NCBI RefSeq assembly: GCF_024502345.1
Contig: NZ_JALDNN010000001.1
DNA length: 64,000 nucleotides
From: Escherichia coli
GTDB lineage: Bacteria > Pseudomonadota > Gammaproteobacteria > Enterobacterales > Enterobacteriaceae
Strand: one strand, 5' to 3'
In this document: positions 6,546 to 64,000 of the stretch, piece by piece
How the letters are laid out: the number at the start of each line of letters is the position of its first letter
Numbering within the stretch: the stretch's first letter is position 1
Notes under the pieces: model-generated
Seen by the model: only the letters and a program-made list of their open reading frames with translations
What the model was told of the DNA's origin: nothing
Database searches by the model: none
Translations under genes and position numbers: made by a program

Positions 6546-8798
6546 ATGGCAAAAAACACATCTTGCGGTGTCCAACTGCGTATTCGTGGCAAAGTGCAGG
6601 GCGTCGGTTTTCGTCCGTTTGTCTGGCAGCTGGCACAGCAATTAAATCTTCACGGCGATGTCTGTAATGACGGCGATGGCGTAGAAGTCCGGCTGCGGGA
6701 AGACCCGGAAACGTTTCTTGTTCAATTGCATCAGCACTGCCCGCCGCTGGCGCGTATTGATAGCGTCGAGCGTGAGCCGTACATCTGGTCACAACTGCCC
6801 ACTGAGTTCACCATCCGCCAGAGCGCGGGAGGTGCCATGAATACGCAAATTGTTCCCGATGCCGCTACTTGCCCTGCTTGCCTTGCCGAAATGAATACCC
6901 CAGGCGAGCGGCGTTATCGTTATCCGTTTATCAACTGTACCCACTGCGGCCCGCGTTTCACCATTATTCGCGCCATGCCTTACGACCGCCCGTTTACCGT
7001 AATGGCGGCGTTTCCGCTGTGTCCAGCCTGTGATAAAGAGTACCGCGACCCGCTCGATCGTCGCTTCCACGCCCAGCCGGTGGCCTGCCCGGAGTGTGGC
7101 CCACATCTTGAATGGGTAAGTCATGGTGAACATGCGGAACAAGAGGCGGCATTACAGGCGGCTATCGCACAGTTAAAAATGGGCAACATTGTCGCCATCA
7201 AAGGGATTGGCGGATTTCATCTTGCCTGCGATGCACGTAACAGTAACGCGGTGGCGACACTTCGGGCGCGCAAACATCGCCCGGCGAAACCGCTGGCGGT
7301 CATGTTGCCAGTGGCTGACGGTTTACCAGACGCTGCGCGCCAGTTGCTTACCACGCCCGCTGCGCCGATTGTGCTGGTGGATAAAAAATACGTACCTGAG
7401 CTTTGTGATGATATCGCCCCTGGCCTTAACGAAGTCGGAGTGATGTTGCCTGCGAACCCGCTCCAGCATTTGCTGTTACAGGAACTGCAATGCCCTCTGG
7501 TGATGACCTCCGGCAACCTGAGCGGTAAACCACCGGCTATCAGCAACGAACAGGCGCTGGCGGATTTGCAGGGCATTGCCGACGGATTCTTGATACATAA
7601 CCGCGACATCGTGCAGCGGATGGATGATTCGGTGGTGCGCGAAAGCGGCGAAATGCTGCGCCGTTCGCGGGGGTATGTGCCGGATGCGCTGGCTTTGCCT
7701 CCGGGCTTTAAAAATGTTCCGCCTGTGCTGTGTCTCGGCGCGGATCTGAAAAATACCTTCTGCCTGGTGCGCGGTGAACAAGCGGTGTTGAGCCAGCATC
7801 TGGGCGATTTAAGTGACGATGGCATCCAGATGCAGTGGCGCGAAGCGTTACGCCTGATGCAAAACATCTACGATTTCACCCCGCAATACGTTGTGCATGA
7901 CGCGCATCCGGGCTATGTCTCCAGCCAGTGGGCGCGCGAAATGAATCTGCCGACACAAACGGTGCTTCATCATCATGCTCATGCGGCGGCGTGTCTGGCA
8001 GAGCATCAGTGGCCGCTGGATGGCGGTGATGTCATTGCGTTGACGCTCGACGGTATCGGTATGGGGGAGAACGGCGCTTTGTGGGGCGGCGAGTGCCTGC
8101 GGGTGAACTATCGCGAATGCCAGCACCTGGGCGGCTTGCCTGCAGTGGCGCTTCCGGGTGGCGATTTGGCGGCGAAGCAGCCGTGGCGAAACCTGCTGGC
8201 GCAGTGCCTGCGCTTTGTGCCGGAGTGGCAGAATTACTCTGAAACGGCAAGTGTGCAACAGCAAAACTGGAGCGTGCTGGCGCGGGCTATTGAGCGTGGA
8301 ATTAACGCGCCGCTGGCGTCATCGTGTGGGCGTTTGTTCGATGCTGTGGCGGCGGGACTGGGCTGTGCGCCAGCCACGTTAAGTTATGAAGGTGAAGCGG
8401 CTTGTGCTCTGGAGGCGCTCGCAGCCTCATGTGACGGAGTGACGCATCCGGTGACGATACCGCTGGTGGACAATCAACTGGATCTCGCCACTTTCTGGCA
8501 GCAGTGGCTGAACTGGCAGGCTTCGGTTAATCAACGCGCGTGGGCGTTTCATGATGCGCTGGCGCAGGGTTTTGCCGCGTTGATGCGTGAGCAGGCCACG
8601 ATGCGTGGTATCACTACGCTGGTATTTAGCGGCGGGGTTATTCATAACCGTTTGCTGCGTGCACGTCTGGCGCATTATCTCGCTGATTTCACATTGCTCT
8701 TTCCACAGAGTTTACCGGCGGGTGATGGCGGTTTGTCTTTGGGGCAGGGGGTTATTGCTGCGGCGCGTTGGTTAGCGGGTGAAGTCCAGAACGGATAA
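6546..8798 (+). CDS. hypF: Carbamoyltransferase HypF (hydrogenase maturation)
   Basis: ORF 6474-8798; start set at [24 protein letters not shown] (acylphosphatase domain), then Zn-finger CxxC pairs; 750 aa. Confidence 0.85.
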
Positions 8799-25699: not shown

Positions 25700-25792
25700 G
25701 GTGAGGTGGCCGAGAGGCTGAAGGCGCTCCCCTGCTAAGGGAGTATGCGGTCAAAAGCTGCATCCGGGGTTCGAATCCCCGCCTCACCGCCA
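25700..25792 (+). tRNA. serV: tRNA-Ser (anticodon GCU)
   Basis: 93-nt cloverleaf GGTGAGGTGGCCGAGAGG...CGCCTCACCGCCA with long variable arm and anticodon loop CCTGCTAAG. Confidence 0.9.
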
Positions 25793-25795
25793 TTT

Positions 25796-25872
25796 GCATC
25801 CGTAGCTCAGCTGGATAGAGTACTCGGCTACGAACCGAGCGGTCGGAGGTTCGAATCCTCCCGGATGCACCA
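25796..25872 (+). tRNA. argV: tRNA-Arg (anticodon ACG)
   Basis: 77-nt GCATCCGTAGCTCAGCTGGATAGAGTACTCGGCTACGAACCGAGCGGTCGGAGGTTCGAATCCTCCCGGATGCACCA. Confidence 0.9.
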
Positions 25873-26007
25873 TATTCTCCGTAACCTTCAGCGATGAAGG
25901 TATGGAAGAGGTGGCGGTACTAACCGCAGGCACCAGGGAGAATAACGTTGCTTTAGCAACGGCCCGAAGGGCGAGCCGCAAGGCGAGTAATCCTCCCGGA
26001 TGCACCA
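25873..26007 (+). repeat. Structured spacer element ending in a tRNA-Arg 3-prime-end mimic (copy 1)
   Basis: 135-nt unit starting TATTCTCCG with four short hairpins and ending GAGTAATCCTCCCGGATGCACCA, duplicating the 3-prime terminus of the upstream tRNA-Arg. Confidence 0.7.
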
Positions 26008-26071
26008 TCTCTTACTTGATACGGCTTTAGTAGCGGTATCAAAAAATCTGCAGTAAAGTAAGTTTCCCGAT

Positions 26072-26148
26072 GCATCCGTAGCTCAGCTGGATAGAGTACT
26101 CGGCTACGAACCGAGCGGTCGGAGGTTCGAATCCTCCCGGATGCACCA
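26072..26148 (+). tRNA. argY: tRNA-Arg (anticodon ACG)
   Basis: Identical 77-nt tRNA-Arg sequence, second copy. Confidence 0.9.
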
Positions 26149-26210
26149 TCTCTTACTTGATATGGCTTTAGTAGCGGTATCAATATCAGCAGTAAAATAA
26201 ATTTCCCGAT

Positions 26211-26287
26211 GCATCCGTAGCTCAGCTGGATAGAGTACTCGGCTACGAACCGAGCGGTCGGAGGTTCGAATCCTCCCGGATGCACCA
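26211..26287 (+). tRNA. argZ: tRNA-Arg (anticodon ACG)
   Basis: Identical 77-nt tRNA-Arg sequence, third copy. Confidence 0.9.
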
Positions 26288-26422
26288 TATTCTCCGAAAT
26301 CTTCAGCAATGAAGATATCGAAGAGGTAGCGGAATTAACCGCAGGCACCAGGGAGGATAACGTTGCGCCAGCAACGGCCCGAAGGGCGAGCCGCAAGGCG
26401 AGTAATCCTCCCGGATGCACCA
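26288..26422 (+). repeat. Structured spacer element ending in a tRNA-Arg 3-prime-end mimic (copy 2)
   Basis: Same 135-nt unit after argZ with a few substitutions. Confidence 0.7.
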
Positions 26423-26485
26423 TCTCTTACTTGATATGGCTTTAGTAGCGATATCAATATCAGCAGTAAAATAAATTTTCCCGAT

Positions 26486-26562
26486 GCATCCGTAGCTCAG
26501 CTGGATAGAGTACTCGGCTACGAACCGAGCGGTCGGAGGTTCGAATCCTCCCGGATGCACCA
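26486..26562 (+). tRNA. argQ: tRNA-Arg (anticodon ACG)
   Basis: Identical 77-nt tRNA-Arg sequence, fourth copy. Confidence 0.9.
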
Positions 26563-49367: not shown

Positions 49368-50030
49368 TTAATTGCCAGCCATCGCCTGCTGGATAATGGG
49401 AATTGGCGTCAGTAAATGCTGGCGCATTAACTCACTGGCGCGCGCGGTATCTCGCGCCAGTACCGCCGCAGTCAGGGTCTGGTGCTGATCGTGTTTATCC
49501 TCCAGCATTTCCACCGAAAGCACCGTTCGCCGCAGCCAGATAAATCGATAGCGCGCCGCCAGATCAAACAACCGTTCACGCATTTGCAGCAAATAGTGAG
49601 AACCACAGCCCGCCACAATTGCTGTATGAAACGCCTGATGACGCAGATCCCACTCATCAAGCATTTTCTCGCTGGCGTCACAGGCTTCCAGCTTACTGAG
49701 CAGATGCGCTTTTGCGAGAACGTCTGCCTCCCATTCATCGCCACCGCGGGCAATCGCCAGACTGACCAGCATCGCTTCCATATTGGCGCGGGCGTCGAAA
49801 ATATCGAGCAGCTCCTGCTCTGACATAGACGCCACCCGATACCCTTTTTGATTCACCACCGTGACCAGCCGTTCCGCCACCAGTTGAGAAAGTGCTTCCC
49901 GCAACGGCCCAACGCCAAGTGCATAACGCGATGTCAGCAAACTCATCCGTAATTTTTCATCCGGTTGAAAATTACCGCGAATAATATCGTTCTTCAGCCA
50001 GCGATAGCCATCCAGAGACGTAATGGTCAT
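49368..50030 (-). CDS. csiR: GntR-family regulator CsiR
   Basis: ORF 49368-50048; start tentatively at MTITSLDGYRWL. Confidence 0.8.
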   Translation of the reverse strand: MTITSLDGYRWLKNDIIRGNFQPDEKLRMSLLTSRYALGVGPLREALSQLVAERLVTVVNQKGYRVASMSEQELLDIFDARANMEAMLVSLAIARGGDEWEADVLAKAHLLSKLEACDASEKMLDEWDLRHQAFHTAIVAGCGSHYLLQMRERLFDLAARYRFIWLRRTVLSVEMLEDKHDQHQTLTAAVLARDTARASELMRQHLLTPIPIIQQAMAGN

Positions 50031-50050
50031 GGTGTGACTCCTGATCATTA

Positions 50051-51451
50051 TCAGCGCGTATTATGAACGGGTGTTTTTTGCCACAATACCAGCTTTTTCC
50101 AGCGAGCCATAATTGGCACGGTACAGATAATCCCTATCGCTAATAAGCCGGTGGAGATCACTTCTAACTGTTGCGCCGGACGGAATAGCATCACTACCAA
50201 CACAAAGGTAATAAAGCCGATGACCAGCCAGGTGAGCCAAGGATAAAGCCACATTCGCAAGCGAATTTCGCTTCCTTCTGCTCGCAGAATTTTGCGCATC
50301 CGCAACTGTGAAACGGCGATGACTAAATAAACCAGCAGGGCGATAGCGCCGGAGCTGTCGATCAGAAATTTAAATACCTTCGCAGGCGCGTAATAGTTCA
50401 CCACCACCGTTAAGAATGCCGCGCCGGTGGAGAGTAACACCGCCACGTACGGGGTTTTACTGCGGTTGATTTTACCCATTACCGCAGGCGCATCTCCGCG
50501 ACGGCTTAAGGAGTAGAGCATCCTGGAAGCGGTATACAGAGCCGAGTTCAGGCAACTGGTTACGGAAAGTAATATCACGCAGTCCATGATCAATTTCGCA
50601 TGGGGAATATTGAGCAATTCCAGTACCGAGCGATAAGAACCGACGGCTTTTAGTCCGGGCATATTCCACGGAATTAATGCCACGACGACAAAAATAGAAC
50701 ATAAATAGAAGATAGAAATACGCCAGATAACCGAGTTGGTGGCGCGGACAATATGTTTTTCCGGCGTGTCGGATTCCGCGGCGGCAATGGTGACAATTTC
50801 TGCGCCCATAAACGAGAACATGGTGATCAACATCGCGCTTAATACCGCACCGAAGCCGTTGGGCATAAAGCCGCCGCTATCCCACAATCTTGAGATCCCG
50901 CTCACGTCGGCATACGGGTAAAAACCGCTAATTGCGACTGCACCAAGGAAAATAAAGGCCAGGATAGCGATGACTTTGCACAGCGCCAGCCAGAACTCAA
51001 ATTCGCCGTAGTTTTTAACGCTTAATAAATTACTGCCAGTTAAGGCAAGGGTAATGACGAGGGAAAATAACCAGATGGGAATGCCTGGAACCCACGAGTG
51101 CAGGATCATGGCGGCGATGTTGGCTTCCAGCGGGATAACCAGTACCCAAAACCACCAGTACAACCAGCCGATGGTATAACCCGCCCAACGACCAATAGCT
51201 TTATCGGCATAGGTGGAAAACGAACCGGTATCGGGCGTGGCAACCGCCATTTCCGCCAACATCCGCATAATCATAACCACCAGTAGCCCGGCGAACAGAT
51301 AGGCCAGTAATACCGCCGGGCCCGCTTCGGCGATGGCGACGCTGGAACCGACAAACAGACTTGCGCCGATAACACCGGCAATAGACAACATGGTGACGTG
51401 GCGTGATTTCAGCCCGCCGCCTAACTCATGTGGTTGCGATGATTGCCCCAT
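50051..51451 (-). CDS. gabP: GABA permease GabP (APC family)
   Basis: ORF 50051-51514; start set at MGQSSQPHELGGGLKSRHVTM; 466 aa. Confidence 0.9.
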   Translation of the reverse strand: MGQSSQPHELGGGLKSRHVTMLSIAGVIGASLFVGSSVAIAEAGPAVLLAYLFAGLLVVMIMRMLAEMAVATPDTGSFSTYADKAIGRWAGYTIGWLYWWFWVLVIPLEANIAAMILHSWVPGIPIWLFSLVITLALTGSNLLSVKNYGEFEFWLALCKVIAILAFIFLGAVAISGFYPYADVSGISRLWDSGGFMPNGFGAVLSAMLITMFSFMGAEIVTIAAAESDTPEKHIVRATNSVIWRISIFYLCSIFVVVALIPWNMPGLKAVGSYRSVLELLNIPHAKLIMDCVILLSVTSCLNSALYTASRMLYSLSRRGDAPAVMGKINRSKTPYVAVLLSTGAAFLTVVVNYYAPAKVFKFLIDSSGAIALLVYLVIAVSQLRMRKILRAEGSEIRLRMWLYPWLTWLVIGFITFVLVVMLFRPAQQLEVISTGLLAIGIICTVPIMARWKKLVLWQKTPVHNTR

Positions 51452-51539
51452 CCTGAATCCTCTCGAAAGTGTGTCACTTGGGAGAGCGCCCCGACATTTC
51501 CCGCGTCGGGTCACGCGTTTAATTGTTATTGATTCTTTT

Positions 51540-51950
51540 TGCCGGAGAGCGGCTCCGCCTTATCCGGCCGACATAGATTTATTCCTGTTCACGTACAGAT
51601 TGTCGGATGCGGCGTAAACGCCTTATCCGACCTGGATCCCCGTAGGCCGGACAAGACGCGCAGCGTCGCCTCCGGCATGGGTGCGCCGATTGTCGGATGC
51701 GGCGCAAACGCCTTATCCGACCTACATTTCCGTAGGCCGGACAAGACGCGTAAGCGTCGCCTCCGGCATGGTGCGCCGAATGTCGGATGCGGCGTTAACG
51801 CCTTATCCAACCTACACTCTCGTAGGCCGGACAAGACGCGCAGCGTCGCCTCCGGCATGGTGCGCCGATTGTCGGATGCGGCGTTAACGCCTTATCCGAC
51901 CTACACTCTCGTAGGCCGGACAAGACGCGCAGCGTCGCCTCCGGCATGGG
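51540..51950. repeat. REP/BIME tandem cluster (about 5 units) between gabT and gabP
   Basis: Repeated TGTCGGATGCGGCG(T/C)AAACGCCTTATCCGACCTAC...CGTAGGCCGGACAAGACGCGCAGCGTCGCCTCCGGCATGG units. Confidence 0.8.
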
Positions 51951-51957
51951 GGCGGTG

Positions 51958-53238
51958 CTACTGCTTCGCCTCAGCAAAACACTGGCCGATGATCTCCAGA
52001 CCCTGACGGATCTGAGCGTCTTCAATGGTGAGCGGTACAAGGATGCGCAGCACGTTGTAATACGGGCCGCAGGAGAGAAGAATCAGGCCCTTATCGCGGG
52101 CGCGCGCCACGATCTCGGCGGTGAGTTTTGCGTCCGGTTTGCTGTGATCGCCATCTTCAAACAGCTCGATGGCGATCATCGCCCCCAGACCGCGTACGTC
52201 GCCGATCTCCGTGTGTTTTTCGGCGATCGCCAGCAATCCGTCTTTCAGCTTCTGCCCCAGATCGTTGGCTTTCTGCAGCAGATTTTCCTGCTCGAACACC
52301 TTCAACACTTCCAGCGCCGCCACGCAGGCAATCGGATTACCGGCATAGGTGCCGCCCAGCCCGCCTGGAGCGACGGCATCCATCACTTCCGCGCGCCCGG
52401 TGACGCCCGCCAGCGGGAAACCGCCTGCGATCGATTTCGCAAACGTGGTGAGATCCGGCGCCACGCCCATTTGCTCCATCGCAAACAGCGTGCCGGTACG
52501 CCCTGCGCCGCTCTGCACTTCATCGGCAATCAGCATGATCCCGTGCTCGTCACACAGCGTGCGTAAACGCTGCATAAAAGCAGGCGTCGCGGCGTAGAAA
52601 CCGCCTTCGCCCTGAACCGGCTCAATCACGATGGCGGCGATATCTTCCGGCGCAGCGTCATTTTTAAAAATTCGGTGAATGCTAGCGATAGCGTCATCTT
52701 CACTGATGCCGTGCAGCGGGCAAGGATAAAGCGCGCGATAAACGTGCCCAGGCATCAGCCCCATGCCCGCAGAGTACGGATTCACCTTGCCGGTCAGCGC
52801 CAGCGTGTAATGCGTGCGCCCGTGGTACGCGCCGCTAAAGGCGATAGTTCCGCTACGTTTGGTGGCGGCGCGGGCGATTTTCACCGCGTTTTCCACCGCT
52901 TCGGAACCGGTCGTAACCAGCAGCGTTTTCTTGGCGAAATCGCCTGGCACCTTCTGATTCATAATCTCGCACAGCTCCAGATACGGCTCGTAGGCCAGCA
53001 CCTGGAAGCAGGTGTGCGACAGTTTTTTCAACTGCGCTTCCACTGCCGCAACCACTTTCGGATGCAGGTGCCCGGTATTGAGCACCGCAATGCCGCCCGC
53101 GAAATCAAGATACTCACGGCCTTCAACGTCCCACACCCGGCAGTTTTCCGCGCGATCAGCGAAAATGGGGTGAATTTGCCCAACGCCACGAGGAATTGCC
53201 TGACTGCGGCGCTGCATTAACTCTTTATTGCTGCTCAT
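51958..53238 (-). CDS. gabT: 4-aminobutyrate aminotransferase GabT
   Basis: 426-aa PLP class III aminotransferase ORF. Confidence 0.9.
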   Translation of the reverse strand: MSSNKELMQRRSQAIPRGVGQIHPIFADRAENCRVWDVEGREYLDFAGGIAVLNTGHLHPKVVAAVEAQLKKLSHTCFQVLAYEPYLELCEIMNQKVPGDFAKKTLLVTTGSEAVENAVKIARAATKRSGTIAFSGAYHGRTHYTLALTGKVNPYSAGMGLMPGHVYRALYPCPLHGISEDDAIASIHRIFKNDAAPEDIAAIVIEPVQGEGGFYAATPAFMQRLRTLCDEHGIMLIADEVQSGAGRTGTLFAMEQMGVAPDLTTFAKSIAGGFPLAGVTGRAEVMDAVAPGGLGGTYAGNPIACVAALEVLKVFEQENLLQKANDLGQKLKDGLLAIAEKHTEIGDVRGLGAMIAIELFEDGDHSKPDAKLTAEIVARARDKGLILLSCGPYYNVLRILVPLTIEDAQIRQGLEIIGQCFAEAKQ

Positions 53239-53251
53239 TCGCGTTCTCCAG

Positions 53252-54700
53252 TTAAAGACCGATGCACATATATTTGATTTCTAAGTAATCTTCGATGCCA
53301 TACTTCGAACCTTCACGACCCAGACCCGAGGCTTTAATGCCGCCGAACGGGGCCACTTCATTGGAAATAATCCCGGTATTGATGCCGACGATGCCGTACT
53401 CCAGCGCCTCGCCCACGCGGAAGACGCGACTTAAATCACGGGCATAGAAATAGGCGGCAAGGCCAAACTCGGTGTCATTGGCTTGCGCGATCACATCGGC
53501 TTCATCTTTAAAACGGAACAGCGGGGCGAGGGGGCCGAAGGTCTCTTCTTTCGACACTTTGGCGTTGGCCGGCACGTCCACCAGAATGGTGGGCTGGAAG
53601 AAGTTACCGCCGCGTTCGTGTGCTTTACCACCGCAAACCACGCGTGCGCCTTTCTCCAGCGCATCGGCAATATGCTCTTCTACTTTTGCTACTGCTTTTT
53701 CATCAATCAGCGGCCCGATAGTGACGCCTTTCTCCAGCCCGTCACCGATGTGCAGTTTGCTCACCGCCTGCTGCAATTTTTCGGCAAAGCGGTCATACAC
53801 GCCGTCCTGCACGTATAAACGGTTGGCGCAGACGCAGGTTTGCCCGGCGTTGCGGAATTTCGAGGCCAGTGCGCCTTCCACGGCTTTATCGAGATCGGCA
53901 TCGTCAAAGACGATAAACGGCGCGTTGCCGCCCAGCTCCAGCGACACTTTTTTGATGTCTTTCGCGCACTGTTCCATTAACTGGCGGCCAATTCCGGTCG
54001 AACCGGTAAACGACAGCTTGCGCACCAGCGGATTGCTGGTCAGTTCGTTACCCACCGCGCCCGCCGAACCGGTGACCACGTTAAATACACCAGCCGGAAT
54101 GCCCGCGCGGATCGCCAGTTCTGCCAGCGCCAGCGCAGAGAACGGCGTCTGACTGGCGGGCTTCAGCACCATCGTGCAGCCTGCCGCCAGCGCCGGACCG
54201 GCTTTGCGGGTAATCATCGCCGCCGGGAAGTTCCACGGCGTGATAGCCGCGGTGACGCCAATCGGCTGCTTGATAACAATCAGGCGTTTATCGGCCTGAT
54301 GACCGGGAATGGTGTCGCCATAAATACGTTTGCCTTCTTCGGCAAACCACTCAATAAAGGAGGCGGCGTAGCTGATTTCGCCTTTCGCTTCTGCCAGTGG
54401 TTTGCCCTGTTCGAGGGTCATCAGGCGCGCTAAATCGTCCTGATGCTCCATCATCAAATTGAACCAGTTGCGCAGAATGTTGGCGCGTTCTTTGGCGGTG
54501 AGCGCACGCCAGGCGGGCAGGGCGCGGTTGGCGGCGTCGATAGCAGCGCGGGTTTCATCAGCGCCCATTTTGGGTACGCTACCCAGCTTGTCGCCGTTCG
54601 CCGGATTGGTGACGTCGATGACCTCGCCATTGTTGGCGTCCAGCCATTCCCCGTTAATCAACGCCTGCTGGCGGAATAAGTTACTGTCGTTAAGTTTCAT
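53252..54700 (-). CDS. gabD: Succinate-semialdehyde dehydrogenase GabD
   Basis: 482-aa aldehyde dehydrogenase ORF. Confidence 0.9.
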   Translation of the reverse strand: MKLNDSNLFRQQALINGEWLDANNGEVIDVTNPANGDKLGSVPKMGADETRAAIDAANRALPAWRALTAKERANILRNWFNLMMEHQDDLARLMTLEQGKPLAEAKGEISYAASFIEWFAEEGKRIYGDTIPGHQADKRLIVIKQPIGVTAAITPWNFPAAMITRKAGPALAAGCTMVLKPASQTPFSALALAELAIRAGIPAGVFNVVTGSAGAVGNELTSNPLVRKLSFTGSTGIGRQLMEQCAKDIKKVSLELGGNAPFIVFDDADLDKAVEGALASKFRNAGQTCVCANRLYVQDGVYDRFAEKLQQAVSKLHIGDGLEKGVTIGPLIDEKAVAKVEEHIADALEKGARVVCGGKAHERGGNFFQPTILVDVPANAKVSKEETFGPLAPLFRFKDEADVIAQANDTEFGLAAYFYARDLSRVFRVGEALEYGIVGINTGIISNEVAPFGGIKASGLGREGSKYGIEDYLEIKYMCIGL

Positions 54701-54722
54701 CGCTACATCCTGTTTTCAAAGG

Positions 54723-55991
54723 TTATTGATTAAATGCGGCGTGTAAGGCATCCACACTACGTGCCGCTCGCAGCGTGCGTCCGGGGTTACTCTGGCTTGC
54801 CAACAGCGTTTGTACCTTGCTGACAATATGCGCACCAATAGGAATTGCTGATGTCGCTGCCGGGGAGGGCGCATTGCAGGTGTGGATCGTGCGCGGGGTG
54901 GTGACAAACAGAAAATCGTCAATCAGCTTGCCGTCCGGCGATACCGCCTGCGCCCGCACACCGGCGGGCCAGGGCTGGAGATCGCTTAACGAAAGCCGGG
55001 GACAATACTTTTGCACCAGCCGCAGATAGCCGCTTTTGCACAGCGAGTTTTTCATCTCGCCCAGTCCTGAGCGTAGATGGTTTTGCAGCACCCGGCGAAT
55101 CCCCGACGAGCCCAAAATCTCCAGCGTGTCGCTAAATGAGAAGTCGCGCTTGCGATAGCCTTCGCGTTTGAACGCCAGCACTGCGTTTGGCCCAACGGTG
55201 ACGCTACCGTCGATCATGCGGGTGAGATGAACGCCTAAAAACGGCATTGCCGGGTCGGGGATGGGGTAAATCAGGTGGTTAACAATCTGGTTATGCTCCG
55301 GCGCCAGGCGGAAATACTCGCCACGGAACGGGCAGATAATAAAGCCCGGTTCGAGGCCGAGCATTTTCACCAGCCGGTCAGCCATCAGCCCGGAACAGCT
55401 AATCAGCGTTGACGCTTCGTATTCGCCACCCTGATGGGTACGTATCACCACGCCGTTTTTATGCTCACTAAGGCCGCTGACTTCGGCGTTATAGATAATC
55501 TCGCCGCCTCTGGCCTGGAAGATTTTTGCCATCGCCGCCGTGACTTCGCGGTAGCTGACAATGCCGCTGGACGGCACAAAAATACCGCCAAGCCCGGTGA
55601 TATTCGGTTCGCGCTCGCGCAGTTCATCGGCGTTTAACCACTCGCGCTCGATACCGTTCGCGGCCGTGCGTTCCCATAAGGCGCGCATCCGTTCCATTTC
55701 GAGTTCAGACGTGGCGACCAGCATCTTGCCGCAGTTGTCGTAGCGAATGCCGTTTTGATCGCAAAAGGCTTTGGTGGCGCGGTTTCCCGCCAGGCAAAAC
55801 TGCGCCTTCAGACTGCCGGGCGTGTAATAAACCCCGGCATGGATCACGCCGCTGTTGTGGCCCGTCTGGTGACAGGCCGGGCCGGACTCTTTTTCCAGCA
55901 ACGCAATGCGGGCATCCGGGTAGACATCAATCAGTTGCATGGCGGTCGACATGCCGATGATGCCACCGCCAATAATCACAAAATCATACAT
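54723..55991 (-). CDS. lhgO: L-2-hydroxyglutarate oxidase/dehydrogenase LhgO (YgaF)
   Basis: 422-aa FAD-dependent ORF with N-terminal GGGIIG dinucleotide motif. Confidence 0.85.
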   Translation of the reverse strand: MYDFVIIGGGIIGMSTAMQLIDVYPDARIALLEKESGPACHQTGHNSGVIHAGVYYTPGSLKAQFCLAGNRATKAFCDQNGIRYDNCGKMLVATSELEMERMRALWERTAANGIEREWLNADELREREPNITGLGGIFVPSSGIVSYREVTAAMAKIFQARGGEIIYNAEVSGLSEHKNGVVIRTHQGGEYEASTLISCSGLMADRLVKMLGLEPGFIICPFRGEYFRLAPEHNQIVNHLIYPIPDPAMPFLGVHLTRMIDGSVTVGPNAVLAFKREGYRKRDFSFSDTLEILGSSGIRRVLQNHLRSGLGEMKNSLCKSGYLRLVQKYCPRLSLSDLQPWPAGVRAQAVSPDGKLIDDFLFVTTPRTIHTCNAPSPAATSAIPIGAHIVSKVQTLLASQSNPGRTLRAARSVDALHAAFNQ

Positions 55992-56009
55992 CCGCTCAAT
56001 TCCTTTGCG

Positions 56010-57101
<1,092 letters not shown>

Positions 57102-57323
57102 CTATTGTGATCAAAAACAACAAATTAGTAACATTTAACGTAGGGTATTAAGGCAAAGTGAGACAGGAAATGAATAACTAAAGCAACAGGTTAGGGGGGA
57201 ATTACCATCAGAGAACAGATTATCTGGTCGATAAAAAACGGTAAATGGCTTCACTGCAAAATGACCGTCAGTAAACTAAACATATTATCTGCCCCGTTTT
57301 AGCGGGGCAGATATAACATTAAA

Positions 57324-59012
57324 TTACAAATAGAGATAGTTCAGCGGTTCTCCTGTTTTCCCTAAAAGAAGAGCGCTACGCCCAGGAATATTGATATTTA
57401 GAGTTCCGCCTCTAAGCATAAATGCTTTACCAGGGGGGATAATTTTTCGGGTATTATTAATAATAATGTTAACGCTATTACTCCCCATGTTTTTATATTT
57501 TCCAGGTTGCAATTTGTTAGGCCAGGCACCTTCAACTTCTTCGTTTCCTTTATTTATTATAACTAGTCCATCATGAGGAGAGTGATTAATGTTCACCGAA
57601 TCCCCACGACTAAAGGCCAGAACGTTTTTAGTTGCAAATACACCCTCAAATGCGCTCCATATTCCTGCTTTATCTATATATAATGCGTGGAATTCATTGT
57701 AGAGCTGCTGATAGGTAGAGCAACCTTTATTAAGCCACGCCTCACCGCCGACACGCGTCGACCCATCATAATTTTTAATTTCAGTCGTTGATTTTAATAC
57801 TTGGCCATCCCAGTAAACTAAAGGCCTGCTGAACGGGAGAGCGGCCATATATGCCATTGCTAATTGTTCATCTTGTTGATGGTTAAATAGAAAGTCATTG
57901 AAAAGATTGCCATTGTTAGGAAAAACGTGGTTAATGTTAATCAATATCCGTCTTTTTGATGGGATGCTTGAGATTGTTGAACCCGGTTTTGATGCAAGGG
58001 TTTGGAGATCGCCACCAAATGAAAAAGCTTTTATCGTCTTCATGAGCAATGAAAAATCAATGGCGCTTAAATCATCTCTTTCATAAAGCAGCGATGACAT
58101 TTGTTGTTCATCCAACTGACAAGTTACCAGATATTCCATGTAATTCATAACGGCTTTTTCATGATATTTTGGGTTAAATAAGTTAGTATTGTGTAATCGC
58201 TCATTATAATTTTTAAGCGGTGGGGTTATTGATCTTTCTATTTGTTCATGTTTTGAGTGTTTTGCCGCATCATAACGTAAACCTCGTACGCCATATTTTC
58301 GCATTTCACGAACGTATTGATTTTGCAGCATAATAACCTGGTCACTTTTGGGGGTTGTTTTAGGCATTCCATTTAAACGCTTTTCTTTTAATGCATGGAG
58401 GTTTTCCCATTCATCCTTAGAAATATTATCTTTACTTGCTTCGAAGTCTTTTGCAGTGAGATGTATATCTTCTGGATGGATTTGTTTACGTTCTTTTGTT
58501 ACTGGATCTATAGTAAATGGAATCAAAACCTGACCTTGCCAATAGCCAGGGATACCACCTTCTATATCTTTACTGATCTTCGCTCGTATATCAGCAGAGG
58601 GATAATCCAGGTCATTTTTACCACTACCCCCGATTCCCATAAAGTTAAAGGTATAATCAGGAATGATATCGATACCAAATTTTTTAGCATCTTTAACCAA
58701 TGCGATAAAATCCTGCAAATCTCCCATTGGATTATGGATGGTACAAAGATCTTCGGGTTGATAAGCGTGAAACCAGTAACCTTTTTCTTCTTCGGGAGTT
58801 TCTGGTCCGTCGGCGCGGAAAGTTGTCACTGGAGGGATTTGTATATACCCATAATGGCAACGTGCAAACTCAGACATATTTTCCCTGATTTGCTGGTAGG
58901 TGGCATTAAAAGCATGAAGAATCGCTTCGCCAGGTTTTTTGGGGGTGATGATTTCACATTGTGATTTCTGAACAGCAGTAAGGGATTTACGCTCAAGTGT
59001 TTGCCGTAGATG
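57324..59012 (-). pseudogene. ygaQ: GH13 (alpha-amylase-like) protein YgaQ, 5-prime-truncated by IS3
   Basis: 517-aa ORF with alpha-amylase region II-like motif GLRYDAAKH; the frame stays open upstream of the first Met as far as the IS3 end at 59013; AT-rich. Confidence 0.7.
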
Positions 59013-59077
59013 TGATCTTACCCAGCAATAGTGGACACGCGGCTAAGTGAGTAAACTCTCAGTCAGAGGTGACTCAC

Positions 59078-59377
59078 ATGACAAAAACAGTATCAACCAG
59101 TAAAAAACCCCGTAAACAGCATTCGCCTGAATTTCGCAGTGAAGCCCTGAAGCTTGCTGAACGCATCGGTGTTACTGCCGCAGCCCGTGAACTCAGCCTG
59201 TATGAATCACAGCTCTACAACTGGCGCAGTAAACAGCAAAATCAGCAGACGTCTTCTGAACGTGAACTGGAGATGTCTACCGAGATTGCACGTCTCAAAC
59301 GCCAGCTGGCAGAACGGGATGAAGAGCTGGCTATCCTCCAAAAGGCCGCGACATACTTCGCGAAGCGCCTGAAATGA
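59078..59377 (+). CDS. insE: IS3 OrfA (InsE)
   Basis: [50 protein letters not shown]... Confidence 0.9.
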
Positions 59378-60240
59378 AGTATGTCTTTATTGAAAAACAT
59401 CAGGCTGAGTTCAGCATCAAAGCAATGTGCCGCGTGCTCCGGGTGGCCCGCAGCGGCTGGTATACGTGGTGTCAGCGGCGGACAAGGATAAGCACGCGTC
59501 AGCAGTTCCGCCAACACTGCGACAGCGTTGTCCTCGCGGCTTTTACCCGGTCAAAACAGCGTTACGGTGCCCCACGCCTGACGGATGAACTGCGTGCTCA
59601 GGGTTACCCCTTTAACGTAAAAACCGTGGCGGCAAGCCTGCGCCGTCAGGGACTGAGGGCAAAGGCCTCCCGGAAGTTCAGCCCGGTCAGCTACCGCGCA
59701 CACGGCCTGCCTGTGTCAGAAAATCTGTTGGAGCAGGATTTTTACGCCAGTGGCCCGAACCAGAAGTGGGCAGGAGACATCACGTACTTACGTACAGATG
59801 AAGGCTGGCTGTATCTGGCAGTGGTCATTGACCTGTGGTCACGTGCCGTTATTGGCTGGTCAATGTCGCCACGCATGACGGCGCAACTGGCCTGCGATGC
59901 CCTGCAGATGGCGCTGTGGCGGCGTAAGAGGCCCCGGAACGTTATCGTTCACACGGACCGTGGAGGCCAGTACTGTTCAGCAGATTATCAGGCGCAACTG
60001 AAGCGGCATAATCTGCGTGGAAGTATGAGCGCAAAAGGTTGCTGCTACGATAATGCCTGCGTGGAAAGCTTCTTTCATTCGCTGAAAGTGGAATGTATCC
60101 ATGGAGAACACTTTATCAGCCGGGAAATAATGCGGGCAACGGTGTTTAATTATATCGAATGTGATTACAATCGGTGGCGGCGGCACAGTTGGTGTGGCGG
60201 CCTCAGTCCGGAACAATTTGAAAACCAGAACCTCGCTTAG
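59374..60240 (+). CDS. insF: IS3 OrfB transposase (InsF; DDE)
   Basis: 288-aa ORF overlapping insE in the -1 frame. Confidence 0.9.
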
Positions 60241-60324
60241 GCCTGTGTCCATATTACGTGGGTAGGATCATAATGCTTTGGTTGCTGGCGTATCTGACAG
60301 CTTCTTCGGCGTGAAGGTCGTTGT

Positions 60325-61381
60325 GGCTTTGTTGAATAAATCAGATTTCGGGTAAGTCTCCCCCGTAGCGGGTTGTGTTTTCAGGCAATACGCACGCTTT
60401 CAGGCATACCTGCTTTCGTCATTTTGTTCAGCGCTCGTACCAGGGCCATAGCCTCTGCAACCTGACCATCGTAGTCACGCAGTGTCAGTGAACCCCCGAA
60501 CAGCTGTTTTACCCGGTACATCGCCGTTTCCGCTATCGAGCGACGGTTGTAATCTGTTGTCCATTTCCACCGCGCATTACTCCCGGTCATTCGCTGATTA
60601 GCCACTGCACGGTTACGGTCTGCATATTCACCGGGCCAGTAACCCGCACCTTTTCGGGGAGGGATAAGCGCGCTGATTTTCTTACGCCGCAGTTCATCGT
60701 GACATAGCCGGGTATCGTAAGCGCCATCGGCGGCGGCTGACCTGATTTTCCGGTGGGTTTGCCGGATTAACCCGGGGAAGGCCTCTGAGTCCGTAACGTT
60801 GTTCAGCGACAGGTCAGCGCAGATGATTTCATGTGTTTTACTGTCAACGGCGAGATGCAGCTTACGCCAGATACGGCGGCGTTCCTGGCCATGCTTTTTG
60901 ACTTTCCACTCGCCTTCACCGAAGACCTTCAGCCCGGTGGAATCAATTACCAGGTGTGCGATTTCACCCCGGGTGGGCGTTTTGAAACTGACATTAACCG
61001 ACTTTGCCCGCCTGCTGACACAGCTGTAATCCGGGCAGCGTAGCGGAACGTTCATCAGAGAAAAAATGGAATCAATAAAGCCCTGCGCAGCGCGCAGGGT
61101 CAGCCTGAATACGCGTTTAATGACCAGCACAGTCGTGATGGCAAGGTCAGAATAGCGCTGAGGTCTGCCTCGTGAAGAAGGTGTTGCTGACTCATACCAG
61201 GCCTGAATAGCTTCATCATCCAGCCAGAAAGTTATGGAGCCACGGTTGATGAGGGCTTTATTGTAGGTGGGCCAGTTGGTGATTTTGAACTTTTGCTTTG
61301 CCACGGAACGGTCTGCGTTGTCGGGAAGATACGTGATCTGATCCTTCAACTCAGCAAAAGTTCGATTTATTCAACAAAGCC
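60325..61381 (-). mobile_element. IS903-group (IS5 family) insertion sequence, copy 1 (1057 bp)
   Basis: Terminal inverted repeats GGCTTTGTTGAATAAATC at 60325-60342 and 61364-61381; internal 322-aa transposase ORF. Confidence 0.85.
60381..61349 (-). CDS. IS903-group transposase
   Basis: 322-aa ORF ending ...LVRALNKMTKAGMPESVRIA, recognised as IS903/IS102-type Tnp. Confidence 0.85.
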   Translation of the reverse strand: MKDQITYLPDNADRSVAKQKFKITNWPTYNKALINRGSITFWLDDEAIQAWYESATPSSRGRPQRYSDLAITTVLVIKRVFRLTLRAAQGFIDSIFSLMNVPLRCPDYSCVSRRAKSVNVSFKTPTRGEIAHLVIDSTGLKVFGEGEWKVKKHGQERRRIWRKLHLAVDSKTHEIICADLSLNNVTDSEAFPGLIRQTHRKIRSAAADGAYDTRLCHDELRRKKISALIPPRKGAGYWPGEYADRNRAVANQRMTGSNARWKWTTDYNRRSIAETAMYRVKQLFGGSLTLRDYDGQVAEAMALVRALNKMTKAGMPESVRIA

Positions 61382-61480
61382 TGTCCCCATTTGTAAATGG
61401 CTATGCTTAGTCCACATAGGTTAATGGTGTGATTATTAATTCTTTAACTAAATCAAGATAGTTAATGCATCATGGGAGAG

Positions 61481-61900
61481 TTATGCGGCAATAACTTTGC
61501 ATTTTTGAGACGAAACATAGTCACTCCACCATTGCATGAGAACCACCCGTTCAGTGAGATACTCTGCACGATTGTAGGCTGCAATTATTTCATCTTTCTT
61601 CGAGTGGGCAAGGGCGGCTTCTAAGACATCAGTCCTAAACTTGCCAGACTCCTCAGCAGCCGTTCTAGCAATGGATCGCATACCGTGAGCTACAAGCTCA
61701 CCTCCGAAACCCATACGGATTATGGCCGCATTAGCTGTTTGTTCATGCATGTGATTGAGTGGAGCTTTGATACTGGGGAACACCCACTCTCTATGCCCGC
61801 TGATGACTTTCATTAAATCCAAAACTCGCAAAGCTTCTTTGCTCAGTGGAACTTTGTGAGGCTTCTTCATTTTCATAAACTCCGCCGGGATGTTCCACAT
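61481..61900 (-). pseudogene. P4-type tyrosine integrase, C-terminal remnant A
   Basis: 139-aa ORF with catalytic-domain residues (...LVAHGMRSIARTAAEESG...EAALAHSKKDEIIAAYNRAEYLTERVVLMQWW); an in-frame stop two codons upstream of the Met shows N-terminal truncation. Confidence 0.7.
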
Positions 61901-62062
61901 GCCAGTTTCAATATCAATAGCCGCCTTTCGACGGTGTAGTGGGGAGAGTATTGCTTACAAACGTAATGAAATTGTTTGAGTAGCTAGGCTACTGCATAGG
62001 ATTATTTTGTTCTGTTAATATATCCGTTAATATAGATAGATTGATCCAATTGAGTTTAAGGA

Positions 62063-63772
62063 ATGAGTATGTTTCAGATATCAGCTGGAGTGTTCTTTGA
62101 TTTAGATAAAATAGAAAAACACGATGGCGCATTTGTTTTTTATTCAAATGTTGATGTGTCTTTCTCGGTGGAAAACACCTCCCCTCTTTTTAAAGCAAAT
62201 AAAATAAGTCATGATGGTATAAACTGTTATGTGGTAAACTATACTCTCCTGACCGAAAAACCAGAACGAATTGAAGCTGGAGTCGTAGTTAGGGCTGGTG
62301 ATGAGGATTATAGGCAACAATTTATTTTATTATGGGAATTCTATTTTGATTGTGTGGCTAGAGTAGAAAAAGAATCGGTTAAAAAAATATGTGCATTATC
62401 AAATTTTAATAAACATCACTCAAAAATTGCGCTTGAAGTTGCCCCATATTTAGTGGAGATTAACCGAAGAGTTTCATTTGATGATGTCTCTGGGTTTTCT
62501 GCTTTTATTAAAGATGTAGTGAATCTAAATAGATCTGCCTTTAAATCTTTAATGGCAGCGTTAAAAATAATTAGTGATTCAAAAGAATCATTGTCAACCA
62601 ACTTTGACCTGACTTATTCCATGTTAGTCTATGCCTTGGAGTCTTTGTCTCAAAGAAATGATAACTATAAGTCTGATTGGGATGACTACGATCAAAAAAC
62701 CAGAGGTGAATTAGAGTCTGTATTTGAGCATATGCCTGGTGAGGATGTTTGTAAAATTAAATCAATACTTATTGAAGGCAAACAATTCAGATTACAAAAA
62801 AGGTTCAAAGATTTTATACTGAAAAATCTTGAAGAAAATTATTTCAATGAAACAGAGAGATATCCAATCCGCTATAGCTTCCTTAGTAGAGCTTTAGATA
62901 ATTTATACAAAATCAGGTCTTCTTTTGTCCATGAGCTTAAGCCACTTGATGCAATGATCTCGAAAGCCTACAATCCTGTTGGTGATTGTCTGGTTCTTTT
63001 TGGCGAACCTCACTTCAGTTACTCTGGATTGCTTCGACTTCTTCGCCATGTGATAATAAATTTTTGCCGTAAAAACTACAGTCAAAAAAGAGAGTATGTT
63101 AATTGGGTGATGGAAACATCGGGTGTAATGGTTGCAGAGATATCTGCACAATATTGGCTCTGGAATGCAGACGGATTTACAGCTAAAAGTATAGCGAAGT
63201 GGTTTAGTGAATACCTAAATATGTTAAATTTAGGCGAAGTCACTGATTTGCAGTCTATCATGGACAAAATTGAGATAATCTATGACCAATCCAAAAAAGA
63301 ATATAAAAATGGGTTGTTGTATTTTTATTTCTTATATAACTTAATGCATAATGGAAATAAGGGTGAATGGCTTGAGTTTGCGAACAAGCGAAGTTCTATA
63401 CTTGTTTGTGATATATATTGGTATTCATGCTCTCCATATTTATATAAATCATTTACTAATGTTTCAAATGGTATTGCTGATATAAAAACATTGAGAAACT
63501 TTTTGTCTTGTTTTAACGAATATGATAAAAATAAATTTAAGCCAAATCGTTTAAATCTCCCTGCAATGACCGAAGTAATTATGTTGGCTTGCGCAGCAAA
63601 TTCATTCTTCAGAATTGGAATGTATCAAGACTATGTTTTAATGGGCAATAGAGCGATGAGAGAAATTGCTTCAGTAAAAGATGTATTTTATTATATAAAA
63701 GAACGATTAAGTAATTCACAACTTATTGAATTGGACGAGTGCTTGAGATTGTATAGAAAAAAAGGGGGCTAA
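62063..63772 (+). CDS. Hypothetical protein, 569 aa, AT-rich orphan
   Basis: Complete ORF; RBS AAGGA at 62058-62062 favours the second ATG at 62069; clearly A+T-rich relative to core genes; no family recognised; R-S-S-F-V-H at residues 285-290. Confidence 0.7.
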   Translation: MSMFQISAGVFFDLDKIEKHDGAFVFYSNVDVSFSVENTSPLFKANKISHDGINCYVVNYTLLTEKPERIEAGVVVRAGDEDYRQQFILLWEFYFDCVARVEKESVKKICALSNFNKHHSKIALEVAPYLVEINRRVSFDDVSGFSAFIKDVVNLNRSAFKSLMAALKIISDSKESLSTNFDLTYSMLVYALESLSQRNDNYKSDWDDYDQKTRGELESVFEHMPGEDVCKIKSILIEGKQFRLQKRFKDFILKNLEENYFNETERYPIRYSFLSRALDNLYKIRSSFVHELKPLDAMISKAYNPVGDCLVLFGEPHFSYSGLLRLLRHVIINFCRKNYSQKREYVNWVMETSGVMVAEISAQYWLWNADGFTAKSIAKWFSEYLNMLNLGEVTDLQSIMDKIEIIYDQSKKEYKNGLLYFYFLYNLMHNGNKGEWLEFANKRSSILVCDIYWYSCSPYLYKSFTNVSNGIADIKTLRNFLSCFNEYDKNKFKPNRLNLPAMTEVIMLACAANSFFRIGMYQDYVLMGNRAMREIASVKDVFYYIKERLSNSQLIELDECLRLYRKKGG

Positions 63773-63786
63773 CCCCTTTTATTTTT
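63757..63786. terminator. Bidirectional rho-independent terminator
   Basis: AAAAAAAGGGGG-CTAA-CCCCTTTTTATTTTT overlapping the convergent stop codons of the 569-aa ORF and integrase remnant B. Confidence 0.7.
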
Positions 63787-63932
63787 AACGTATTCTCCCC
63801 ACCAATCCATCAATTCAATTCGCTGCACGAGATAAGTAGAACGATTGTATGCTTTTCTAACTTCATTTTTATCACTGTGGGCTAAGGCAGACTCGATAAC
63901 ATCAGGATTTAATCCAGCTTCATTCATGGCTG
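63769..63932 (-). pseudogene. P4-type tyrosine integrase, C-terminal remnant B, truncated by IS903 copy 2
   Basis: Reverse-strand translation ...AMNEAGLNPDVIESALAHSDKNEVRKAYNRSTYLVQRIELMDWWGEYVKNKRG-stop; about 54 codons; related to but distinct from remnant A. Confidence 0.65.
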
Positions 63933-64000
63933 GGCTTTGTTGAATAAATCGAACTTTTGCTGAGTTGAAGGATCAGATCACGTATCTTCCCGACAACGCA
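63933..64000 (+). mobile_element. IS903-group insertion sequence, copy 2 (partial, runs off window), inverted relative to copy 1
   Basis: 63933-64000 is the exact reverse complement of 61314-61381 (the transposase-proximal end of copy 1). Confidence 0.85.

Follow-up and report, generated by a model that had tools for sequence, protein, structure and literature searches.

Integrases of the P4 family generally target tRNA-type genes. In E. coli K-12, the element CP4-57 with its integrase IntA is reportedly located at ssrA, the tmRNA gene, and Kirby and colleagues in 1994 and Williams in 2003 are said to have described this 'traffic at the tmRNA gene'. P4 itself integrates at a tRNA-Leu gene. 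For the single gene discussed below, the closest counterpart is ApeA, which Gao and colleagues reportedly presented in 2020 as an anti-phage HEPN system. ApeA has since been described as an anti-phage HEPN nuclease acting on the tRNA anticodon (bioRxiv 10.64898/2026.01.26.701840). Tandem and pseudogenised P4-like elements have also been noted before (de Sousa and Rocha 2021, PMC8628076).

The locus studied here lies at the end of a 64,000-nucleotide stretch of E. coli DNA, the whole of which is referred to as the window. An initial annotation had pointed out two related, non-identical integrase C-termini in the same orientation (remnants A and B), and both open reading frames were present as described. 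The region very probably represents the immobilised wreck of a tandem pair of ssrA-targeting elements, later gutted by deletion and IS activity. Its features are listed below; related loci are denoted by L numbers, with L003 being the locus of strain Tig228.

57324-59012 (-): ygaQ', alpha-amylase family, 97.5% identical to L003 1-2427
59013-60270 (+): IS3, complete, 1,258 bp, 99.8% identical to the IS3 copies of L003 and L004
60271-60324: scrap of island A, 54 bp (L003 7239-7292), ending in GGTCGTTGT, 100% identical to L003, L006 and L016
60325-61381 (-): IS903B copy 1, complete, 1,057 bp, from its ends and the transposase ORF 60381-61349
61382-61480: island A intergenic DNA downstream of intA, 99.8% identical to E. 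coli C (L002 9001-9099) and to L003 10855-10953
61481-61919 (-): remnant A, 3' end of a P4-family tyrosine integrase gene, from the ORF list, alignments and PRK09692
61916-61919: AATA microhomology at a deletion junction, from the base-level overlap of two alignments
61920-62062 (+): remainder of the DNA upstream in the cargo cassette, where the window resumes at L003 20001
62063-63772 (+): intact 'HEPN-TPR' gene (orf569), 569 aa, from the ORF list and the tables of Rousset et al. 2022
63760-63780: G+C-rich hairpin with T-runs on both strands, from a sequence scan
63769-63932 (-): remnant B, 3' end of the satellite integrase gene, from the ORF list, alignments and PRK09692
63933-64000 (+): first 68 nt of IS903B copy 2, complementary to 61314-61381 at 68/68 positions

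The ancestral array and its integration target

The undamaged arrangement is found in Tig228, in the order glaH, ygaQ, ileY, island A, intA, degenerate att, P4-like satellite, intB and ssrA, and the window is collinear with it in both gene order and orientation. Island A carries a type I R-M system, two ParB-like genes, a serine recombinase and IntA (409 aa), and satellite B runs from the primase to psu and cos, followed by one cargo gene and IntB (398 aa). This tandem pair bears out one half of the original reading, in which two elements had arrived successively and then decayed; the other half, integration at a tRNA gene, did not hold, the target being ssrA. Element A appears to have integrated first, and B would then have entered the intact ssrA-proximal att.

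Homology searches identified the parent integrases as the WP_001062342 (A) and WP_000124719 (B) types, and their usual site is beside ssrA. Among 5,426 complete E. coli genomes, the 5' end of the A-type integrase was contiguous with ssrA in 1,036 and that of the B-type in 364, and intact forms of both were located about 165-185 bp from the ssrA 3' end. E. coli C and ATCC 8739 have versions with a single element at ssrA. Between elements A and B, Tig228 carries TGGTGGGCTGGCGGAGTTTGAAT, a degenerate duplicate of the 3' end of ssrA (L003 12349-12370), which was the sole ssrA-like repeat found at that locus. The target of both elements is ssrA, not ileY and not any tRNA gene. An integrase next to its target gene with border repeats, as expected for an integrative island, was found for ssrA in the relatives and not in the window.

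No tRNA or tmRNA gene was detected by ARAGORN in the window between 27 and 64 kb, and Rfam at a permissive E-value gave zero matches between 56 and 64 kb, in agreement with the proposed absence of tRNA genes from 57.3-64 kb. A search for att repeats likewise found no copy of the ssrA 3' end in the window at up to 6 errors in 28 nt. A missing target, as had been claimed, does not follow from this: ssrA is expected past coordinate 64000 and is out of view. In L017, ssrA starts 1,218 bp past the point that corresponds to the IS903 copy 2 insertion, 184 bp from intB, and its expected position here is about 2.2 kb past the window end. In L016, a third island, and not ssrA, comes after intB, so the sequence that follows in this genome is not certain; either ssrA or a further island ahead of it would lie beyond coordinate 64000.

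The alternative that two P4-type islands entered the tRNA gene ileY beside ygaQ, and that this target has since been lost, draws on the general preference of the family for tRNA-type genes. As stated in the initial annotation, a tRNA-Ile gene adjoins the ygaQ homologue in L003 and L005, and it is absent from the window. Both parent integrases are, however, found next to ssrA with their 5' ends facing it, 7.3 kb separate intA in Tig228 from ileY, which lies at the other (cargo) end of island A, and the lone ssrA-like repeat sits between the two elements, which leaves this model with very little probability. The gap bridged by IS3 (L003 2428-7238), a deletion unrelated to these integrases, accounts for the lost ileY.

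Deletions and insertion sequences

Starting from island A and the P4-like satellite B side by side, with B next to ssrA and a degenerate ssrA 3' end between them, the present locus was derived through several events. An illegitimate deletion of approximately 8.6 kb over AATA fused intA to the satellite upstream of its cargo; IS3 now connects what is left of ygaQ with internal DNA of island A, and the intervening DNA including ileY is lost; IS903B entered island A at GGTCGTTGT and intB at TCATGGCTG; and 3,562 bp adjoining IS903B copy 1 on its right were deleted. These events are shown by comparison with relatives that are intact or less damaged.

The AATA deletion corresponds to L003 11393-20000. 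Lost with it were codons 1-264 of intA, the degenerate ssrA att copy inside the array and all of the P4-like core, from primase to psu together with cos. Codon 265 of intA is now fused to DNA that lies 147 bp ahead of the cargo gene, and the same junction was found in L016-L019 and L023-L025. About 137 bp of cassette-specific upstream DNA was lost in the same deletion. Cassette exchange at the P4 hotspot boundary was considered as another origin of this junction and rejected, as the deletion endpoint differs from that boundary: the conserved P4 backbone stops about 137 bp earlier, at L003 ~19863.

At the other end of the locus, ygaQ' retains about 563 codons of its 3' part and has lost about 188 codons of its 5' part at the IS3 border; an intact homologue of 750 aa is present in FDAARGOS_944. 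IS3 is bordered by ATG at its left and TAA at its right end instead of a 3-bp target duplication, and its flanks correspond to L003 2427 and 7239. It bridges ygaQ and the interior of island A; the start of ygaQ, the tRNA gene ileY and the distal portion of island A have gone from between the two flanks.

IS903B copy 1 has the features of IS903 (IS5 family), with a length of about 1,057 bp and terminal inverted repeats GGCTTTGTTGAATAAATC, and matching copies in RefSeq are annotated as 'IS5-like element IS903B family transposase'. Its right end abuts the 3,562-bp deletion (defined against L016 132-3693), which took both ParB genes and the recombinase. Copy 2 is inverted relative to copy 1 and sits in intB after TCATGGCTG, and the window ends inside it. 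The junction between copy 2 and intB was also found in L018, L019 and L023-L031. The N-terminal IntB product predicted on the far side of copy 2, IntB(1-347)+RLC, gave no record when looked up exactly, and a scan of JGI metagenomes for the IS903 end with TCATGGCTG and intB gave 0 matches; the control junction from the window also gave 0 there, so the null result of that scan is uninformative.

Several intermediate states of decay are preserved in public contigs. L016 and L017 are 100% identical to the window over 61382-63932, including the AATA junction, and they have an intact intB and are free of IS903. L019 differs from the window at 1 of 6,122 bases and carries IS903 with GGTCGTTGT on its inner side, with the ParB and recombinase genes still in place. 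The junction at IS3 and that of IS903 within intB are seen in separate relatives (L016/L017 vs L018/L023), so the order of events does not nest cleanly; such a pattern would require recombination between sublineages, repeated insertion or chimeric contigs.

The 2,551-bp segment between the inverted IS903B copies might also be read as a Tn903-like composite transposon that came from elsewhere with the HEPN-TPR gene, being flanked exactly as in Tn903 and having no target duplication at copy 1 in the window. This is most improbable, as both the inner and the outer flanks are collinear with the ancestral array and with IS903-free relatives at the same chromosomal site. Moreover, copy 1 alone has its own 9-bp duplication, GGTCGTTGT, in L019, as seen when the left flank in the window is combined with the inner flank in L019, which indicates that the two IS copies were inserted separately; in the window this duplication is missing because of the adjacent 3,562-bp deletion. 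The segment was found on none of 72,556 plasmids and at no other locus in complete E. coli genomes.

DNA that lies between inverted repeats of 1 kb can be flipped, and the two copies are 100% identical over the 68 visible nt. Homologous recombination between them could then have inverted the segment, making the order of A and B an artefact. This, too, has scant likelihood: the orientation of the segment relative to glaH/ygaQ is the same in Tig228, E. coli C and the IS903-free L016 and L017, and the flanking 9-mers (GGTCGTTGT vs TCATGGCTG) do not show the pattern of swapped duplications. Both the composite-transposon and the inversion readings were rejected on flank collinearity and the comparison of the 9-mers.

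The two integrase stubs

The ORF of remnant A, 61481-61900 (-), encodes 139 aa including EAALAHSKKDEIIAAYNRAEYLTERVVLMQWWSDYV, and alignment to the 409-aa island-A parent shows that integrase-derived DNA reaches 61919, leaving codons 265-409 plus the stop. The HxxR, the His and the Tyr-containing AYNR motif are kept, and the arm-binding and core-binding domains as well as the first catalytic Arg (R253 of TWVRPGE) are absent. Remnant A had been described as cut by an in-frame stop. This needs correction, since the real cut is the deletion junction at 61916-61919, and the stop at 61955-61957 comes 36 nt later, within satellite-derived DNA that is unrelated to the integrase. When the 139-aa ORF was looked up exactly, only other, independent intA pseudogenes were returned, in loci where island A is intact.

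The ORF of remnant B, 63769-63927 (-), encodes 52 aa including ESALAHSDKNEVRKAYNRSTYLVQRIELMDWWGEYV, and the remnant as a whole (63769-63932) represents codons 346-398 plus the stop of its 398-aa parent; the C-terminal LAHS...AYNR is all that survives of IntB. The suggested truncation by IS903 copy 2 could be placed exactly at the IS903B inverted repeat (63932/63933). At its 3' end, the hairpin at 63760-63780 covers the 4 bp by which the convergent orf569 and intB overlap at their stop codons, and it is terminator-like in both directions.

Both remnants matched PHROG integrase families and the C-terminal part of NCBIfam PRK09692, remnant A over model positions 267-395 (E 9e-48) and remnant B over 347-395 (E 3e-19). 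The parents score 444.6 and 591.2 bits against the PRK09692 cut-off of 434 and align with P4 Int at 35-36% identity over about 400 aa, i.e. full length (E 1e-85). Intact IntB of relatives contains the domains Arm-DNA-bind_3 (PF13356), Phage_int_M (PF22022) and Phage_integrase (PF00589). By these matches, the parents are P4-family tyrosine integrases (PRK09692; CP4-57 IntA / P4 Int group). The three-domain architecture and the complete catalytic set are absent from both window stubs, which are pseudogene fragments and not functional family members. As the stubs provide no recombinase and the window has no att copy, the segment can apparently no longer excise.

The stubs share their orientation and a similar C-terminal motif and both lie between the two IS903 copies, yet their origin as duplicated pieces of a single integrase gene, for example through IS903-mediated duplication, is next to impossible, as their overlapping 3' DNA has many mismatches and different 3' ends, the full-length parents IntA and IntB share 50% protein identity, and the two stubs correspond, at 99.8-100% identity, to two different full-length genes of other genomes. 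The view that two different integrases are involved therefore withstood the duplicate test.

The surviving cargo gene and related systems

One gene is left intact between the two stubs. This 569-aa gene is known as 'HEPN-TPR', a cargo of the psu-int hotspot of P4, and is already catalogued: it is listed in Table S1A (NC_010468), in Table S1B as system 38 and also in Table S2B of Rousset et al. 2022 (PMC9122126), where it appears under 'additional tested systems', outside the group of seven that were validated; the phage panel of that study comprised eight phages. The protein has 567 aa if counted from the ATG annotated at 62069. A simple scan of 61920-62062 revealed no consensus-grade promoter. 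Pfam gave zero domain matches for the protein and a fold search gave TPR-like repeats only; the PADLOC model 'Cas13-ApeA' matched weakly (E 7e-6), and one homologue is named 'Apea-like HEPN domain-containing protein' in UniRef. Across 25 homologues, the most divergent at 18% identity, R285, S286 and H290 of the Rx4H motif R285-x4-H290 do not vary. The product is probably an infection-activated RNase.

The gene is intact and identical in draft genomes and in several metagenome or sequencing-run contigs, and we infer that it is now a fixed chromosomal gene and a candidate for a role in defence. That it is a domesticated chromosomal immunity gene which has also become newly mobilisable as a Tn903-like composite transposon is unlikely; if true, the IS903-bracketed gene would offer a route for hotspot cargo from satellites to plasmids.

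The history of the locus is ordinary, fully explainable genome decay of a kind already known, with low novelty, and it leaves current understanding unchallenged. It provides a worked example of a tandem array dismantled by one microhomology deletion together with IS3 and IS903, and illustrates that a hotspot cargo gene can survive its satellite. Integrase stubs of the P4 family in this part of the E. coli genome indicate ssrA and not the nearest tRNA gene, and a seemingly missing target may simply fall outside the window.

Compared with Tn903, the locus shares an inverted IS903B pair bracketing a 2.55-kb passenger segment; unlike in Tn903, the IS copies were inserted independently in situ, and plasmids and complete E. 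coli genomes gave no sign of movement as a unit. Like ApeA, the cargo protein is encoded by a single gene, has roughly 570 aa, is mostly helical and carries an invariant Rx4H HEPN motif. Its motif sits in the middle of the protein (R285), ahead of TPR-like repeats; the HEPN domain of ApeA is C-terminal (R502 in Ec2ApeA).

The P4-like character of element B is evident in ATCC 8739 and Tig228, where it has primase, DUF5375, epsilon-like, icd-like, sid, delta, psu and int genes, a helix-turn-helix regulator that is the counterpart of P4 ORF88, and a single cargo gene between psu/cos and int, as in the P4-like psu-int defence hotspot. The set that defines a P4-like satellite (alpha, epsilon, delta, sid, psu, cos, int) was found in the elements of L001 and L003 and not in the window, which, unlike P4, is devoid of all P4 core genes and retains the cargo and 53 int codons. 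P4 Int, with 439 aa, is merely 35-36% identical to the parents here. A phage integrase annotated as 'Prophage CP4-57 integrase' shares 49.5% identity with IntB. Unlike in CP4-57, the stubs of the window are C-terminal and have no att site, and the integrase alleles (about 50% identity) and the cargo differ. Like these elements, CP4-57 with IntA in E. coli K-12 has a P4-family integrase gene directly downstream of ssrA, provides the ssrA 3' end and terminator region, and occupies the hotspot between ssrA and ygaQ/glaH.

Two integrase remnants and their parents

Features in window 56010-64000 (strand given where assigned)
56010-57092, minus strand: glaH
57324-59012, minus strand: truncated ygaQ (alpha-amylase family)
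59013-60270: complete IS3
60271-60324: 54-bp scrap of island A
60325-61381: complete 1,057-bp IS903B (copy 1)
61382-61919: remnant A and its downstream flank
62063-63772, plus strand: intact 569-aa ORF
63769-63932, minus strand: remnant B
63933-64000: initial 68 nt of IS903B copy 2, in the opposite orientation to copy 1

Two integrase C-terminal reading frames were confirmed on the minus strand, both with the peptides quoted in the initial annotation. In the ORF list, remnant A, the 3' end of the island A integrase gene intA, spans 61481..61900 (139 aa), and remnant B, the 3' end of the P4-like satellite integrase gene intB, spans 63769..63927 (52 aa). Both matched PHROG integrase families and the C-terminal part of NCBIfam PRK09692 (413 positions; 267-395 for remnant A, 347-395 for remnant B). 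In other E. coli the two remnants have separate full-length counterparts (99.8-100% identity): the parent of A is a 409-aa integrase (WP_001062342), that of B a 398-aa integrase (WP_000124719). These parents show 35-36% identity to the phage P4 integrase over the full length, which makes "P4-type" an accurate family-level label. Duplication of one gene was rejected, since the overlapping 3' DNA of the remnants has many mismatches and differing ends, and the separate full-length parents share 50% identity; the remnants derive from two different genes.

Integration at ssrA and loss of the array

A tRNA gene, ileY, had been proposed as the integration target, a reading that the context of the parents does not bear out. 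In E. coli C, 166 bp separate the A-type integrase from the ssrA 3' end; in ATCC 8739 the B-type integrase is 184 bp from it and forms part of a complete P4-like satellite (primase to sid, delta, psu, one cargo gene and int). When 5,426 complete E. coli genomes were probed, an unbroken match covering both the 5' end of the integrase gene and ssrA was obtained in 1,036 genomes for the A type and in 364 for the B type. Judged from this adjacency, the target of both elements is ssrA and not a tRNA gene. Williams reportedly described in 2003 that CP4-57, a cryptic prophage of K-12, uses ssrA. Within the window, ARAGORN placed tRNA genes at 25.7-26.6 kb only and found no tmRNA gene, and Rfam gave no match over 56-64 kb even at E<=1. 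These only tRNA genes of the window, tRNA-Ser(gct) followed by four tRNA-Arg(acg) (25700-26562, plus strand), form a serV-argVYZQ-type cluster ~35 kb away from the integrase remnants.

An ancestor-like array in the orientation of the window was found in E. coli Tig228 (L003). Its gene order is glaH, ygaQ homologue, tRNA-Ile, IS3, type I R-M fragment, ParB, ParB, serine recombinase and intA, followed by a spacer, a P4-like satellite, the cargo gene, intB, ssrA and smpB. Between intA and the satellite it carries TGGTGGGCTGGCGGAGTTTGAAT, a degenerate version of the 3' end of ssrA, TGGTGGAGCTGGCGGGAGTTGAA, and thus the internal att of a tandem array.

Window segments and their counterparts in Tig228 (L003)
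56582-59013: L003 1-2427
60271-60325: L003 7239-7293
61382-61919: L003 10855-11392
61916-63932: L003 20001-22017

The alignments overlap by four bases, AATA, at 61916-61919, and remnant A was therefore truncated by an ~8.6-kb microhomology deletion. The first 264 codons of intA were lost in it, as were the internal att and all of the P4 core. Truncation had been attributed to an in-frame stop, which lies 36 nt beyond the AATA junction, inside satellite-derived DNA. The deletion endpoint is not the P4 hotspot boundary, as the conserved cos-proximal backbone stops at ~L003 19863, 137 bp earlier.

No 3-bp duplication borders IS3, whose flanks map to L003 2427 and 7239. Absent between them are the ygaQ 5' end (~188 N-terminal codons), the tRNA-Ile gene ileY, normally next after ygaQ, and the distal part of island A; the missing ileY was thus deleted along with the ygaQ 5' end and does not mark a lost target. 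In E. coli strain 2452, IS3 (L004 9250-10507) interrupts an otherwise full-length intA at a point corresponding to window ~61627-61631. IS3 occupies the same point in a Logan contig from the deleted lineage (L020 1-27), which suggests either that this is an insertion hotspot or that the two share ancestry and recombined later. Nearly all complete E. coli genomes match the gabP-glaH backbone (window 50000-57300) at only ~97.4% identity. FDAARGOS_943 and FDAARGOS_944 match it at 100% and have an entirely different, CP4-57-like island set at the locus.

Less damaged relatives and the sequence beyond the window

Relatives were found by exact-protein look-ups with the cargo protein and the 52-aa remnant B, and their contigs bear the same AATA junction. 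Two NCBI draft genomes (L016, L017) are 100% identical to window 61382-63932 and have the window's junction of IS3 with the 55-bp scrap; they are without IS903, and their ParB, recombinase and intB genes are intact. A further contig, L019, starts with an IS903 end, GGTCGTTGT and on into ParB, ends with an intB stub and an IS903 end, and has 1 difference from L016 in 6,122 bases. L019 is thus the nearest state to that preceding the final step: it has both IS903 copies, copy 1 with its own 9-bp duplication. Compared with L019, the window has lost a 3,562-bp stretch (L016 132-3693) along with one of the two 9-bp repeats; IS903B copy 1 is flanked by GGTCGTTGT on the left and by island A at L016 3694 on the right. 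The loss is a classical IS-adjacent deletion.

L018 and L023 have IS903 in intB and no IS3 at the island-A junction, while L016 and L017 have IS3 and no IS903. Both junctions occur together in the window, and the order of events is therefore not cleanly nested; to account for it, one has to assume chimeric contigs, repeated insertion or recombination between sublineages.

In L017, ssrA lies at 7444-7806, 1,218 bp past the point that IS903 copy 2 occupies in the window. A simple insertion of copy 2 would put the start of ssrA at ~66.2 kb. The predicted N-terminal IntB fragment on its far side had nothing on record by exact look-up, and JGI metagenome scans for the far junction gave 0 matches, as did a control junction, making them uninformative. 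L016 carries a third element between a degenerate att and the expected place of ssrA, giving a triple array at ssrA; a further island may therefore also lie past coordinate 64000 in this genome. This element (L016 7475-16084; GCA_050022275.1, JBAOKM010000028.1) follows a degenerate ssrA att, TGGTGGGCTGGCG, adjoining intB, and encodes PycTM and a nucleotide cyclase (Pycsar-like), DUF6387, AlpA and three tandem tyrosine recombinases.

The retained cargo gene and the overall reading

The cargo gene between the remnants (orf569) is intact and has outlived its satellite, its protein differing at 2 residues from that of ATCC 8739 and at 3 from that of Tig228. Rousset et al. 2022 (PMC9122126) list it as P4 psu-int hotspot cargo for NC_010468, WP_000486482 (Table S1A), and as system 38, "HEPN_Apea", with 42 occurrences, "Likely a RNAse" (Table S1B). 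Its clone, pFR83 "HEPN-TPR", is one of the "additional tested systems" (Table S2B), and the seven validated systems of the main text do not include it; we infer that it gave no protection in those tests. Residues R285, S286 and H290 (Rx4H motif) are invariant across 25 homologues, down to 18% identity. Homologues form ~70 clusters in Enterobacterales, Vibrio, Aeromonas and other groups, nearly all annotated "hypothetical". The protein has C-terminal TPR-like repeats and matched no Pfam family. The cassette occurs in full P4 psu-int context in only 16 of the 5,426 complete genomes, and the segment was found on none of 72,556 plasmids. The stop codons of the convergent genes orf569 and intB overlap by 4 bp, and over this overlap lies a G+C-rich hairpin (63760-63780) that has T-runs on each strand and is therefore terminator-like in both directions.

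Successive integration of two islands and their decay, as initially proposed, thus stand; the target, the cause of the remnant A truncation and the meaning of the missing ileY do not. The locus is of an ordinary, well-understood kind: a tandem array at the ssrA hotspot that has decayed and been reshaped by IS3 and IS903B. The inverted IS903 pair could conceivably now move the HEPN-TPR gene, a candidate defence gene. In using ssrA, the A-type and B-type elements are like CP4-57, a P4-like cryptic prophage in K-12 known to use this gene (PMC10107115).
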